NCBI RefSeq assembly: GCF_009931435.1
Contig: NZ_CP043414.1
Reading direction: 5' to 3' (one strand)
From: Escherichia coli
GTDB taxonomy: Bacteria > Pseudomonadota > Gammaproteobacteria > Enterobacterales > Enterobacteriaceae
Length of the DNA: 64,000 nucleotides
In this document: in pieces, positions 34,501 through 40,500 of the stretch
How the letters are laid out: every line of letters starts with the position of its first letter
How positions within the stretch are numbered: position 1 is the first letter of the stretch
Position numbers: made by a program

Positions 34501-37500
34501 GATTTCAACTCAGCACGCAGATGTTCCGTAGTGTGTTCTTTCGACATAGTTTTCTCCAGGTGAGTAAGTAGTGACTATTGTGAGTTAGTAGTCGCGCGCT
34601 TCCAGCTTTTTCAGCTCTTCCTGCGCTTCTGCCAGTTTCCGTTCGCGTTTGGCAATCTTATCGGCATCGCCTTTTTGCTTCGCCTCGGCTAAATCTTGCT
34701 GGCGTTCCGCCACCTCATCTTTCTGCTTTGCGATTTTCTTCTGATGATCGGCACGCAGCTGGCTATCTGAACAGTTGGCCCGGACTTCACTCAGGGCTTT
34801 ATTCAGACCGTCAATACGATTCTGGTTTTGGTGTTTTTCGGCATAGCTGATCTCCTTAAGGATATTTTGCTCCTTTTCCTGACACAGGGTAGTGGCATAA
34901 CTACCGGTACTAAGAGCAAAAAGAGAAACAGCTAAAGCGATGCGGTATTTCATTCTTGAACCTTCCATTGTGATTCGGACCTATTACAAAGGAACGATTG
35001 TCCAGACAACGAAGCGGTAGTGTTGACCACCGCCTCATTAATCATAGACAGTTACGGTGAAATCACCAAAGTGAGTGATCTGTTTCGGATAACAGGAAGT
35101 TATCCGAAGCGATGAGAGTTATCCCGCAATCGGGTTAGCCACTGCATAGCCTGACTATTATTGTCCTGCTGCGCAATGATGTAGCCATGGGGCAATGTTC
35201 TGTCGAGAACCGCTTTTGCTGCGGCACTCTGGTCGCTGGAGTCAAACGTAATTAACAGAGTGTCGTTTTTAGGGGTGATGCTTTTGAAAGGAATGCCGTG
35301 AGCGTCAAGGTGATGCCAGATTGAAAAACCGTCTGGCATCGTTGTGCCTTGATGAACGGCACGAATCGCCAGCGTAGACTCTTGCTGGCGAACCGCGGAC
35401 CAGGCCAGCAACAGCGTGCCGACCAGAAGTAAAACAGCGCCGGACCAGGTTAGCTGGCGAAGCGACATGCGAGGTATTTGCATCCCTTACCCCCGATTTC
35501 CATATTTCTTTTTCCATAACACGACCAGAGAACCTGCCAGGCCAAACACCAGCAGCACCACCGGGAGCAGCATCAGGCATGACATCAGCTGGTCCTCGTA
35601 CTTTAAAAATACCGGCGTTTTGCCGAGCATGTAACCCAGAGTTGTCAGGATTAATACCCACAGCAGACCGCTCATCCAGTTGAAGAACTGAAAGCGCGCG
35701 TTATTCAGCCCTGATAACCCGGCAATCGTCGGCAGCAGTGTTCTGACAAACGCAATAAAGCGACCAATTAACAGCGCCGATAAACCGTGTTTATGAAAAA
35801 GATGGTGTGCGCGTTGATGATAATGCGCGGGTAAATGAGATAGCCAGTTTTGTACGGTGCGGGTATTGCCCAGCCATCGCCCCTGAATATAGCTGACCCA
35901 GCAGCCGAGGCTGGCGGCAACGGTCAGTAGCAGAATCGTTTGCGGATAGCCCATCGCGCCTTTCGCAATCAATACGCCGACCAACACCAGTAAACTGTCG
36001 CCCGGTAAAAAGGCCGCCGGAAGCAAGCCGTTTTCAAGGAACAAAATTACAAATAAAACAAAATAGAGCATGCCAATCATCGACGGATTGGCCAGGGTTT
36101 CAAAATCCTGCGCCCACAGGGCTTGCAGCAATTGGGTCAAAAGTTCCATTCATTATTCCTGGTGAATCGGTTAACGCCACGCTGGTTTTAAAAGATGCAC
36201 TACCGCAATGTTATTGCTTTTTTGGTATGTTCTGCGGGTTTGATACATCAACACAGCCTGAACTATTCCCTGTTAAATCGTGAGATAAGAAAGCATTCAA
36301 AAGCATAAATTCAAATTGAATCTAATTGTAACAAAGGTCAACGTTGTTCGTTATCAAAATTACATGTCCGTGGTGTCTGATTTTGCTGAATGCAGGGGAG
36401 GGAGGCGAGAGGATTTACACAGGCTGACACTTTATACTTTTCGCTTACCGACGAGGCAAACAGGCGCGTCGTTGCGCCTGCCGAATGGGGATTTCATTTG
36501 CTGCCGCTGGTGGCCGTATCAAGATGCACAACGGGATTTTCGGCGAACAGATAGCGGTCGGCATTGAACTCGAAATCGTCGCTGGTTTCGTTAAATAACA
36601 TGATCTTGGTGTTTTCCAGATGCTGCCACATTGCCAGCTTAGCGGCATGGGGATCTTTGCGAATTAACGCTTTGAGGATCTGATCGTGGTCATCGCACCA
36701 GTTATCGACAGTACGGGCATCAATATGCTCGTGCAGTTTTTTCCAGTATGGGTTATGGCTACGTTGGGTCCACATTTTTTCAACGATGGCTGCCAGGGCG
36801 GAGTTCTGCGTCGCCAGGGCAACCTGAATATGGAACTGTAAATCCCATTCGGAATCACGGAAGCATTGTTCGCCGCGCGCCTGCTCCTGGATGGCCATCA
36901 GTTTCATGATGTCCTGTTTAGTTACCTGGGTCGCTGCGAACTCGGCAATATTACTTTCGATGAGCTGACGTGCCTGAAGCAGCTCAAACGGACCGTAATT
37001 GGCGAATTCCATATTAGTGTCAGCCGACTGCTGATGGCGCGGCTGGTTGGAAACCACATGAATACCCGAGCCTTTACGCACCTCTACATAGCCTTCAACT
37101 TCAAGCATGATGATGGCTTCACGAACCACGGTGCGACTGACGTTCTTTTCATCGGCAATAAAGCGTTCAGCAGGCAGTTTATCACCCACCAGATAGACGC
37201 CCTGTTCGATGCGCTCTTTCAGATCAGCGGCAAGTTGTTGATACAAACGGCGTGGTTCAGTGATTTCCATATGCGTCTCCCGGAGTGGAATGCGGACGAA
37301 GTTATCATACCACTTTATTCAAGGGTATGCCATCGTTCATATATAATTATGGTGATTGAATTAATATAATAAATTAATATTGTGAATATTTATAAATTCC
37401 TAAAAATTAAGTGTTGCCATTGTGAAAATCACTATGTTTCAGTAACTTAATTCTTTACTTTTAAATTTAATCTTCACTAAAAATGCTTTTTTATATTGAC

Positions 37501-40500
37501 TTACAATAGGTCTACATTTCTAATGCACTAACTTTTTGGAAACAATACTATAAGATCAAATTTATATGGTGGCGAAAATTAACTTCTTATCACGGCTTAC
37601 GCCGCTTTTATTCGTGTTCGCTCCTTTTTTTGCACAGTCAAATATGACTGTTTATCCTATGGCTGTTTCCATTAATAGCCTGGGTGAAGGCAACGTTCGC
37701 GTTATATCTAAAAGTAATGAAGTTCAGTATATTAAGGCGACAGTATTCCGTATCGATAATCCATCGACGCCTCAGGAAAATGAAGTTGAGATTAAATCCG
37801 GTGATGCAAATCATCTGGTTGTGATGCCACCCAAATTCGCCTTACCAGCCGGTAGTAGCAAAACCGTGCGCTTTGTCGCGATGGAACCAGAGCAAAAAGA
37901 GAAAAACTATCGCGTTAAATTTGAAGCGGTTCCCAGTATTGATGACGTTGCCACGGATAAAAAAGATCTCTCTATGCAGTTAACAGTTAATTTAATTTGG
38001 GGGATTGTTGTTAGTGTTCCACCTCAGCAACCTATTGCTAAGTTAGAAGTAAGCCCTGCCCAAAAATTATTAAATGCAGGGAATCAGCGCTTGAAAATTT
38101 TAACGATCGCTTATTGTAAAAATAATAGTAAAAATAATTGCAAGATACAGACCGTCAATAAAAACATTTTCCCTGGTCAGGAAAGAAGTTTAGAAGGCAT
38201 ATCTGGCTACGATAAAATCGTTGTCAAATATAATAACTGGATCACCAAGGACAATGGCGAGTTTGAACTGGCGGTTCATTAATTATCATTGTAATAAACA
38301 AAGGAATAGTAATGAAAAAGGTATTCGCAAAATCTCTTCTGGTCGCGGCAATGTTTTCCGTTGCAGGTTCTGCATTAGCAGTACAAAAAGATATCACTGT
38401 TACTGCCAATGTTGATGCTGCTCTGGATATGACTCAGACAGATAACAGCGCACTGCCGAAAGCAGTTGAAATGCAATATCTGCCGGGGCAGGGCCTGCAA
38501 TCTTACCAGTTAATGACCAAAATCTGGTCAAATGACACGACCAAAGACGTGAAAATGCAGTTAGTTTCTCCTGCACAACTGGTTCAAAGCCTGGACGCTA
38601 CTAAAGTTGTTCCGCTGACTGTAACCTGGGGCGGTGAAGAGATTAAAGCTGATGCGGCAACCACTTTTACTGCAACAAAAATCTTTGCTTCCGATGCGTT
38701 AACTAACGGTTCGCTGGCTAAACCACTGATGTTTGCTCAAGCCACCAAAGGTGTTCTGGAAACAGGTATTTACAGTGGCGTAGTCAGCATTTATCTGTCC
38801 CAGGATATCTAATCCTAATAACAGAATTAACATGTAATAAAGGGAGGAAATTCCTCCCTTCTTTTAACTATTTTAGTATTTATTATGGATTACAGGACTG
38901 CCATGGATAAAAAACTACTGGCTCTTTTGATCCTGGCGAGTATCAGCCCGGCAAAGGCAACATTAACAAAAATCCCCGCTGGTTTCGAGATTATTGCTCA
39001 AGGACAGCAGGAGTATATCGAGGTTTATTTTGCAGGGAAAAGTCTCGGTAAATACTATGCAATGGTTAATCTTGATACCATAACATTTCTGGACTCATCG
39101 AGTTTATACAGTAAACTGGAATTGAACACCGACGATCAAAAAATCGCACGTACAGTGAAAGAAAAACTATCGCAACCGTTAGCTCGCCATGGTGAACTGG
39201 CTTGTGGCTTTGTACGTACTGATTCAGGCTGTGGTTTTCTTAATACTGAGACGGTAGAAATAATCTTCAATGATGAGGAAAGTTCAGCAACGCTCTTTCT
39301 CAATCCGCAATGGAGTTCTGCGTTTGATACGAAATCATTGTATTTAAATCCTGACCAAAATACGGTTAACGCGTTTATACATCAGCAAGATATTAATGTG
39401 CTGGTACAGGACGATTACCAATCGTTGTCAATTCAAGGTAATGGTGCGCAGGGAATAACAGAAAATAGTTATATTGGCGCCCACTGGAATTTCAACGGTT
39501 ATGATGGTGATGATATCAGTGACAGTAATGCTGATGTCAGCGATCTCTATTATCGCTACGATTTTTTACGTCGTTATTATGTGCAGGCGGGGCGGATGGA
39601 CAACCGCACATTATTTAATGCACAAGGTGGTAACTTTACGTTTAACTTTCTGCCACTCGGTGCAATCGACGGAATGCGTATCGGGTCGACGCTCAGTTAT
39701 TTAAACCAGACGCAAAGCCAGCAGGGAACCCCGGTAATGGTTTTGCTTTCGCGCAATTCACGTGTTGATGCTTATCGTAATGAACAACTTTTGGGGTCGT
39801 TTTACCTCAATAGCGGTTCGCAATTTATTGATACCAATTCCTTTCCGCCAGGCAGTTACAGCGTGGCGTTAAAAGTCTATGAAAATAACCAACTCACCCG
39901 CACTGAGCTCGTGCCATTTACCAAAACCGGCGGTCTGACAGACGGAAATGCCCAGTGGTTTTTACAGGCGGGGAAAACCACATCTCAAGCTTCTGATGAT
40001 GAAAGTTCGGCTTATCAGCTGGGTGTGCGCCTGCCATTACATCCGCAATATGAGCTCTATGCAGGGCTGGCGAATGCAGATGATGTTAGTGCCTTCGAGT
40101 TAGGCAATAACTGGACAGCAGATTTAGGCGTGGCAGGGAATCTACTCATCAACGCCAGCGTGTTCCGTAACGATGATGGTGGCAAAGGTGATATGCAACA
40201 GGCTAACTGGAGTCAATCGGGATGGCCGACATTGGGCTTTTATCGTACCAACTCTGATGGTGATGTTTGTACAACCGACAACCGAGAAAGCTACAACGCC
40301 TTAAGCTGTTATGAAAGCATCTCCGCGACGATTTCACAGAATCTTGTAGGCTGGAACATGATGCTGGGTTATACCCGTACGCAAAATAACACGAATGACA
40401 ATCTGCGTTGGGACAAACAGCAGAGCTTTGAAAATAACTATCTTCGCCAGACGACGGCGCAAAGTATTTCCGAAACTTTACAACTCAGTGCTTCCCGCGC

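Follow-up and report, generated by a model that had tools for sequence, protein, structure and literature searches.

What controls a fimbrial operon that carries an AT-rich promoter region and no regulator of its own, and what becomes of the housekeeping gene beside which it sits? Both questions are raised by one intergenic spacer in a 64,000-nucleotide stretch of Escherichia coli DNA (RefSeq assembly GCF_009931435.1, contig NZ_CP043414.1), here called the window. The spacer (295 bp, 37271-37565) lies between exuR, the gene for the hexuronate repressor, and the four genes of the fimbrial operon eafABCD, also known as 'CS1-like'. An earlier note on this DNA had taken the operon for one of class 5, which would need the activator Rns/CfaD against silencing by H-NS, and had expected it to be silent unless an Rns homologue acts in trans.

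The reading that we favor, at a probability of roughly 0.55, is a different one: the spacer would join an exuR leader to an island-borne eaf promoter, with a hybrid promoter for exuR, dampening of the H-NS type, and induction that is independent of Rns. The island would be a mobile Tcf-like four-gene cassette that moves without a dedicated regulator. On one side its DNA would supply a conserved -35 element, [A/T]TGGCA, which with an altered -10 would form the hybrid exuR promoter and replace the K-12-type upstream promoter DNA, now on the exuT side. On the other it would supply the eaf promoter TTGACT-17-TCTAAT, with invariant blocks upstream. Expression in the laboratory would be low through H-NS-type silencing and a weak -10, a step that we infer because the position at -11 is a pyrimidine and the DNA is of the kind that H-NS prefers. 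Induction in a natural niche would come from chromosomally encoded factors and not from Rns/CfaD.

The spacer and its island

The spacer was described in the earlier note as a divergent, extremely AT-rich region common to exuR and the fimbrial operon, and this description holds to the nucleotide. It is the exact gap between the exuR start codon on the minus strand and the chaperone ATG at 37566 on the plus strand, and the operon is of the alpha (class 5-type) kind. G and C make up 26.8% of the 295 bp and 22.4% of 37321-37565, the window average being 49.0%. The lowest-GC stretch of 295 nt in the whole window begins inside it (at 37296, with 24.1%), and of all stretches of this length 0.35% equal the spacer in AT-richness. 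The 60-nt AT tract quoted in the earlier note maps to 37341-37400. TpA steps occur at 13.7 per 100 bp in the AT-rich core and at 5.1 window-wide (2.7-fold). Alignment of the junctions divides the spacer into two parts: about 46 bp of native exuR-side DNA and a core of about 249 bp with 22% GC, all of which is island DNA (Table 1).

The island as a whole has 43.6% GC, compared with 50-54% for exuR and exuT. Annotation and a repeat search found no integrase, insertion sequence element, or terminal or flanking repeats in it. Among 5,426 complete E. coli genomes, the filled site (operon plus spacer) is present in 1,905-1,921 (about 1,908) and the K-12-type empty exuT-exuR junction in 3,501, the two states together accounting for 5,409. 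The island is a clean presence/absence polymorphism at one site, that is, accessory DNA. E. fergusonii has the operon at the identical exuR/exuT site, and in a comparison of the DNA upstream of exuR 77 other species have the site empty. The hairpins of the exuT terminator (42681-42726; folding z-scores of -5.8 and -4.6) have been kept on the exuT side of the island. The smaller of them (42681-42697) is kept through compensatory changes, GCGAGT..ACTCGC in K-12 being GTTTGT..ACAAAC in the window, and it marks the right junction of the island.

The operon and its position are already published. Archer et al. (2011; PMC3032704) named the cluster eafABCD, for 'E. coli alpha-type fimbria', between exuT and exuR of E. 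coli W, and Oshima et al. (2008; PMC2608844) described it from SE11 as 'CS1-like', with E24377A, HS, ATCC 8739, 536, and SMS-3-5 as further carriers. The window operon has the identical four genes, order and chromosomal site, and its spacer and the E. coli W spacer are 91% identical; in contrast, its allele class is rare (six genomes at ≥95% identity) and its tip adhesin strongly diverged, with 74-75% amino-acid identity to the other alleles. In published papers on the cluster we found no description of the eaf promoter region or of an effect on exuR; the conserved blocks, the candidate promoter, and the exuR remodelling presented here are undescribed. The 'CS1-like' naming scheme is reportedly that of Wurpel and colleagues from 2013, and later typing studies keep the name. 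Archer et al. (PMC3032704) stated that eaf is without a tip adhesin, yet the fourth gene (W locus L009 10815-11903) is annotated as a CfaE/CblD-family adhesin.

The gene order, namely chaperone, major pilin, usher, and tip adhesin, is that of alpha fimbriae, and so are the Pfam domains found in orthologues: Fimbrial_CS1 (in the E. fergusonii eafB orthologue), TcfC/Usher_TcfC, and CfaE_2nd. The best NCBIfam models for the four proteins are TcfA, TcfB/CblA, TcfC, and TcfD, every score lying below its cutoff; the usher reaches 537 bits against the Tcf equivalog model, the cutoff of which is 1,428. At the level of identity, the usher stands at 28-30% to CfaC, CsdC, and CsuC and at 33% to CblC of Burkholderia, and a chaperone search returned Tcf-like relatives outside Escherichia at about 50% identity and no CooB or CfaA. 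Protein relatedness is too distant for membership of subclasses 5a-5c (the CFA/I, CS1, and CS2 groups) of enterotoxigenic E. coli (ETEC). By the criterion of protein sequence, the operon belongs to the alpha (alternate chaperone-usher, 'class 5') clade, on a Tcf/Cbl-like branch and outside ETEC 5a-c.

In the four alleles compared, all four open reading frames are intact, and the ratio of nonsynonymous to synonymous substitution rates (dN/dS) is 0.04-0.12 at dS of 0.2-1.9, with exuR at 0.01-0.02 as a reference. The fimbrial proteins are therefore under selection and hence made in some niche, mostly in strains without Rns. Two further observations concern the history of the alleles. The eafC dS between E. 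coli W and the RIVM allele is 0.48, where exuR gives 0.16, which makes the alleles of the fimbrial genes far older than the DNA that flanks them. The alleles are also mosaic: eafD of E. coli W and that of E. fergusonii are 97.5% identical, though the dS of eafA and eafC exceeds 1, which suggests that adhesin alleles have been exchanged across species.

A candidate eaf promoter and the question of Rns

The spacer was aligned for nine alleles: those of the window, W, HS, E69, SCPM-O-B-8794, E. fergusonii, two '75%' alleles, and Escherichia sp. MOD1-EC7003. They are otherwise 75-99% identical across the spacer, and the alignment contains discrete invariant runs, at 37271-80, 37286-97, and 37299-315 on the exuR side, and then at 37327-32, 37396-403, 37437-44, 37496-500, and 37530-35. 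The best candidate for an eaf promoter is the top-scoring hexamer pair of the plus strand (10/12), TTGACT-17-TCTAAT. It is the sole pair with conserved hexamers (5/6 invariant columns each, with TTGAC invariant), and the 17-bp spacing is found in 9/9 alleles; the EC7003 counterpart is TTGACA-17-TTTAAT. Transcription is predicted to start near 37531, with a leader of about 35 nt before the eafA ATG. A strict promoter scan did not list the pair because position 2 of its -10 is C or T and not A, and the promoter is probably weak intrinsically. Upstream, the invariant block ATTCCTAA resembles the right half of the RcsAB box, TAAGAATATTCCTA; we treat this as a lead only.

H-NS silences AT-rich acquired DNA, and the locus has some of the properties expected of an H-NS target: a core of 22% GC, an island of 43.6% GC in a window of 49%, an abundance of TpA steps, and accessory status. 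Most accessory E. coli chaperone-usher operons are cryptic in culture, and the cryptic chaperone-usher operons of K-12 were reportedly found by Korea and colleagues, in 2010, to be silenced by H-NS. By analogy, H-NS silencing under laboratory conditions, relieved by chromosomal factors, is plausible, and the locus probably fits an acquired, AT-rich fimbrial operon that is dampened by H-NS and has no dedicated regulator. The strain used for H-NS and CRP chromatin immunoprecipitation (ChIP), ETEC H10407, is without the island: the interval from ETEC_3363 (exuT) to ETEC_3372 (yqjG) leaves no room for it. The eaf locus is unmentioned in the supplements of the hns transcriptome of enteroaggregative E. 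coli 042.

Other kinds of element in the spacer were also looked for. A search of 36400-38400 against Rfam gave zero matches. Small open reading frames (22-29 aa) were dropped, as they have no Shine-Dalgarno sequence and vary in length between alleles, and CRP-like TGTGA motifs at 37382 and 37421 were dropped by eye, the second half-site being missing. For an invertible switch of the fim type, the island has no recombinase, and the repeat search gave no convincing repeats; the sole inverted repeat (37451-70 / 37702-21) extends into the eafA coding sequence, and its left arm varies among alleles. For a Dam/Lrp switch of the pap type, paired GATC sites were not found, the spacer having one GATC, which is not conserved.

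As the earlier note had stated, there is no Rns/CfaD-type gene in the window. A 265-aa Rns query, 100% identical to cfaD/rns of the E24377A plasmid pETEC_80, found no AraC/Rns-type gene in the 64 kb (tblastn, best E-value 0.77). The RefSeq annotation of the collinear NZ_CP074749.1 agrees, with no AraC-family regulator in 664-740 kb; the regulators annotated in that interval are only AgaR, TdcR, TdcA, YhaJ, ExuR, HigA, and EbgR. A search for such homologues in the 5,426 complete E. coli genomes turned up no chromosomal gene of this kind. DNA resembling rns, cfaD, csvR, or aggR is present in 212 of them, always on a plasmid, and Rns-family chromosomal matches number 0. Set against about 1,908 genomes with the operon, at least 89% of carriers are therefore without such a gene. 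Moreover, the four-gene cassette has no adjacent AraC-type regulator in any of the contexts that were read: between exuR and exuT in E. fergusonii; between gyrA and rcsC in Yokenella, where it adjoins rcsC; between lysR and a racemase gene in Klebsiella and Enterobacter; and in Salmonella, where it is followed by a resolvase-like gene. Judged from these sequences, a cassette without a regulator is the norm for the Tcf-like branch and not an anomaly.

Two published descriptions of the binding site were applied to the spacer. One, for AggR/Rns (PMC6392122), requires WWWWWWWTATC, its TATC intact, at a distance of 21-23 bp upstream from a -10 whose position 2 is A; the other, for Rns (PMC2579436), requires a 12-nt core that agrees with TATTTTTTTATC at 8/12 or better, located beside the -35 and near -109. 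A site of the first kind is absent from the window allele, whose sole TATC in the eaf sense lies in the exuR operator region with a non-A/T tract. For the second, TGCTTTTTTATA at 37484-95 matches TATTTTTTTATC at 9/12 and abuts TTGACT. The end equivalent to TATC varies by allele (TATA, CATG, TGCG, TGTG), and matches of 9/12 quality number 147 in the window. Near -109 the best match, found by eye, is 6/12. A word search with TATTTTTTTATC (≤3 mismatches) was dropped as Rns evidence, the spacer matches being at background.

The DNA upstream of exuR

The earlier note had also held that the insertion changes what lies upstream of exuR and could affect its expression. The first is the case, and the second gains both support and detail from the sequence, in a displaced promoter, a -35 in island DNA, and a linked 3-bp change. 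Shimada et al. (PMC3946193) obtained a K-12 fragment between exuT and exuR that binds sigma-70 RNA polymerase in SELEX (systematic evolution of ligands by exponential enrichment), and its sequence led them to propose the promoter TTTTCA-16-TAAACT. In island strains the junction alignment leaves these K-12-type hexamers on the exuT side, 5.4 kb from exuR, the 5.36-kb island separating the gene from its proposed promoter. In the window, a promoter scan predicts ATGGCA-18-TGgTATGAT on the minus strand (37333..37304), in which the extended -10, TATGAT (37309..37304), is preceded by TGG (37312..37310). The block ATGCCA at 37327-37332 is invariant in the nine alleles amid variable island sequence, and the -35 of EC7003 reads TTGGCA.

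The linked change lies in an element that is otherwise fixed. In a comparison of the region 5' of exuR across 80 species-representative genomes, the 77 that lack the island all have exuT as the immediate neighbor there, together with a 17-mer, AAAGTGGTATAACAAAT, that shows no variation at all. The 3 island-bearing species of the 80, and likewise the nine alleles of the alignment, have AAAGTGGTATGATAAC in its place, together with a different leader. Compared with the K-12-type TATAAC, the island form TATGATAAC is 3 bp longer, and TATAAC has become TATGAT, with T at position 6. Through this 3-bp difference a 20-mer, AAAGTGGTATGATAACTTCG, gains its 17/20 identity to the uxaC-proximal sequence (44458-77), where 0.00 such matches are expected by chance. 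A motif derived from the three sites at exuR, exuT, and uxaC, AAAKTKGTRTGAYAASTT, has zero-mismatch matches at these source sites only, as it must by construction; elsewhere in the 64 kb its nearest match, a single one, has 3 mismatches, and the AT-rich core contains none. The 20-mer at 37297-37316 is thus a putative ExuR/UxuR operator, which would overlap the -10. A UxuR/ExuR palindrome, AATTGGTATACCAATT, had its sole match at the K-12 exuR site, with none in the window, and was replaced by the comparison of exuR, exuT, and uxaC. In K-12, exuR is said to be self-regulated, as Hugouvieux-Cotte-Pattat and Robert-Baudouy reported in 1982.

On this evidence the exuR promoter appears to have been remade when the island inserted: island strains would run exuR from a hybrid promoter, and the 3-bp change may make up for the native promoter DNA that was lost from upstream. 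The likeness to the K-12-type self-regulated promoter lies in an operator-like sequence overlapping a TGn-extended -10, and the difference in a leader that is about 40% changed and in a -35 and upstream DNA that are island sequence. The locus would be a clean natural example of an island that displaces the promoter of a housekeeping regulator, with an apparently compensatory change in an element invariant across the family. Between the two haplotypes, found in 35% and 65% of E. coli, the hexuronate regulon could have different set-points. As a side observation, dS between the window exuR and that of E. coli W is about 0.35, and the source is therefore a divergent Escherichia lineage.

Alternative readings and related systems

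Several points weigh against the reading that we favor. The -10 of the candidate eaf promoter is without the near-universal A at position 2, so that the true promoter could lie elsewhere or be activator-dependent, and a literature search found no transcription-start, ChIP, or reporter data for the eaf locus in any strain. The high-affinity H-NS motif TCGATAAATT has a 2-mismatch match at 37389-98, and such matches number 115 in the window with 77 expected; the word search for it (≤2 mismatches) was dropped as no better than background. In the SCPM-O-B-8794 allele, TTAATATTATC stands 23 bp upstream of TACAAT and agrees with the published AggR/Rns site in full; the equivalent in the window is 37464-37507, where the window allele reads TCAC for TATC. 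Responsiveness to Rns may thus occur sporadically, in some strains. On the exuR side, the K-12 promoter used as comparator is only a prediction within a SELEX fragment, and the ExuR operator assignment comes from similarity to uxaC and exuT and from a consensus sequence, not from a curated matrix.

The argument of the earlier note, that a class 5 operon needing Rns/CfaD against H-NS is silent unless a homologue acts in trans, draws strength from the known ETEC class 5 fimbriae, all of which are Rns/CfaD-regulated (PMC2579436), and from the capacity of Rns and VirF to counteract H-NS (PMC6392122) in a region that is indeed extremely AT-rich. Some strains, E24377A and TW10828 among them, have an Rns-type gene on a plasmid in addition to the island, a 9/12 match lies directly beside TTGACT, and the SCPM-O-B-8794 allele has its site. 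The argument nevertheless finds no support in the comparison: the usher is closest to the Tcf and Cbl models and far from ETEC class 5; 212 carriers at most could have an Rns-like gene, never chromosomal; WWWWWWWTATC is missing from the window allele in the eaf orientation; the TATC part of its 9/12 match is not conserved, and equal matches abound; purifying selection is strong in Rns-less lineages; and the cassettes of other genera have no AraC neighbor. We consider it improbable, and the ETEC Rns paradigm should not be extended to the chromosomal Tcf-like branch, which is common among E. coli, commensals and pathogens alike, and which purifying selection maintains in the absence of Rns. Accessory fimbrial operons are expected to have an AT-rich promoter and to lack a regulator of their own, and the question as originally posed matters little.

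A reading without silencing, in which TTGACT-17-TCTAAT and an AT-rich UP-like tract form a constitutive promoter of low to moderate strength and Eaf is made routinely, agrees with the near-consensus -35, the ideal 17-bp spacing conserved in nine alleles, and the purifying selection. 'Cs1-like' usher and pilin transcripts are also among the differentially expressed families in RNA sequencing of non-O157 Shiga toxin-producing E. coli cultures, although what was compared is a fold change between groups, and gene presence (15 versus 12 strains) confounds it (PMC6033998). With a -10 that lacks the key A at -11, DNA of 22% GC and dense TpA that is a typical H-NS substrate, and the general crypticity of such operons in culture, this reading is rather unlikely. 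A coupling to hexuronates, in which ExuR at 37297-37316 influences H-NS spreading or eaf and the hexuronates of mucus or pectin control fimbriation, could appeal to an operator-like site in the shared spacer that is invariant in all island-bearing alleles, and to the one insertion site common to E. coli and E. fergusonii. The site, however, lies some 215 bp before the predicted start of eaf transcription, the core has no second ExuR-like site, homologous cassettes function at unrelated loci (gyrA/rcsC and lysR/racemase), and autoregulation of exuR fully explains the conservation; we regard the coupling as very improbable. A bolder extension of the reading that we favor, in which fimbrial acquisition forced the rebuilding of the exuR promoter and ExuR at the edge of the AT tract gates both H-NS spreading and Eaf, linking fimbriation to hexuronates, is distinctly improbable; if it were true, about one third of E. 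coli would drive their hexuronate repressor from a differently wired promoter, which may be H-NS-sensitive. That the operon is a decaying, never-expressed remnant with a non-functional spacer would agree with the missing regulator, the missing expression data, and the AT-rich promoter region, but it is contradicted by intact reading frames with dN/dS of 0.04-0.12 at dS up to 1.9 and by the discrete invariant blocks inside a variable spacer, and its probability is close to nil.

Known systems resemble the window operon in part. Tcf of Salmonella Typhi (tcfABCD) and the Tcf-like operons of Klebsiella, Enterobacter, Yokenella, and Kluyvera have the gene order in common with it and likewise no adjacent AraC gene; the window proteins score far below the equivalog cutoffs, as a sister group of Tcf and not Tcf itself, and the Tcf-like cassettes occupy other chromosomal sites, with upstream regions that had no obvious similarity on inspection, unaligned. 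ETEC class 5 fimbriae (CS1, CFA/I, CS17, CS19) share the alpha clade, the gene order, AT-rich promoters, and a short leader before the chaperone gene, whereas the window operon is chromosomal and not on a plasmid, its usher is remote from theirs, and most of its carriers are Rns-less. The cryptic chaperone-usher operons of K-12 are similarly accessory, with an AT-rich promoter, no dedicated activator, and presumed poor expression in culture, but their ushers are of the gamma or pi clades and that of the window is alpha.

Table 1. Features of the exuR-eaf-exuT locus, in window coordinates.
Feature	Coordinates	Strand	Basis or remark
exuR, GntR-family hexuronate repressor, 258 aa	36494..37270	-	NCBIfam NF008571 ExuR, 563 bits against a cutoff of 396; RefSeq agrees
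exuR leader and promoter-proximal DNA	37271..37316	-	Alignable to the K-12-type exuT-exuR spacer, diverged; near-invariant in nine island alleles
Putative ExuR/UxuR-operator-like 20-mer	37297..37316	-	17/20 identical to uxaC-proximal 44458-44477; overlaps predicted -10
Predicted exuR -35, ATGGCA, in island DNA	37328..37333	-	Promoter scan; outside homology with the empty site
eaf ('CS1-like') island	37317..42680		5.36 kb, between the exuT terminator region and the exuR promoter; alignment with K-12-type locus
AT-rich island regulatory region 5' of eafA, candidate H-NS nucleation tract	37317..37565	+	About 22% GC, TpA density
Invariant block ATTCCTAA, candidate regulator site	37396..37403	+	Nine-allele alignment
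Invariant block TTTCAGTA	37437..37444	+	Nine-allele alignment
Best candidate eaf promoter	37496..37524	+	-35 TTGACT (37496-501), 17-bp spacer, -10-like TCTAAT (37519-524)
Invariant AACTTT, at or just past predicted transcription start	37530..37535	+	Nine-allele alignment
eafA, periplasmic chaperone, 238 aa	37566..38282	+	RefSeq 'fimbria/pilus periplasmic chaperone'; best NCBIfam TcfA, below cutoff; homologues with Pfam PapD_N
eafB, CS1-type major pilin, 166 aa	38312..38812	+	RefSeq 'CS1 type fimbrial major subunit'; NCBIfam CblA, TcfB
eafC, TcfC-type usher, 894 aa (RefSeq start)	38903..41587	+	RefSeq, NCBIfam; alternative in-frame ATG at 38885 gives 900 aa
eafD, CfaE/CblD-family tip adhesin, 358 aa, divergent allele	41584..42660	+	RefSeq name; orthologue with Pfam CfaE_2nd
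Small hairpin	42681-42697		Between eafD and exuT stop codons; folding
Strong 12-bp GC hairpin, exuT terminator	42699-42726		Aligns with K-12 terminator region
exuT, hexuronate transporter	42748..44046	-	RefSeq annotation of 99.7%-identical locus

A nearly identical RefSeq genome, E. coli R32_14_1F (from a goat, Nebraska), is 99.7% identical over 36400-44300 and collinear across the whole window, with the gene order exuR, chaperone, CS1-type major subunit, TcfC-type usher, CfaE/CblD-family tip adhesin, exuT, uxaC, and uxaA. Over the whole window its identity is 98.6-99.4%, and about 650 bp near yhaH (30438-31089) are unmatched in it. Apart from the spacer, GC falls below 30% in the window only at about 14100-16400, over a pair of hypothetical genes and the region of tdcR; these stretches are likely to be additional targets of the H-NS type. 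From position 1 to about 7400, between the aga genes and garD, lies an accessory sugar-utilization cluster, with genes for a second AgaR-type repressor, a ROK protein, a Gfo/Idh/MocA oxidoreductase, a ChbG-like deacetylase, a 6-phospho-beta-glucosidase, and the IIC and IIB components of a phosphotransferase system.

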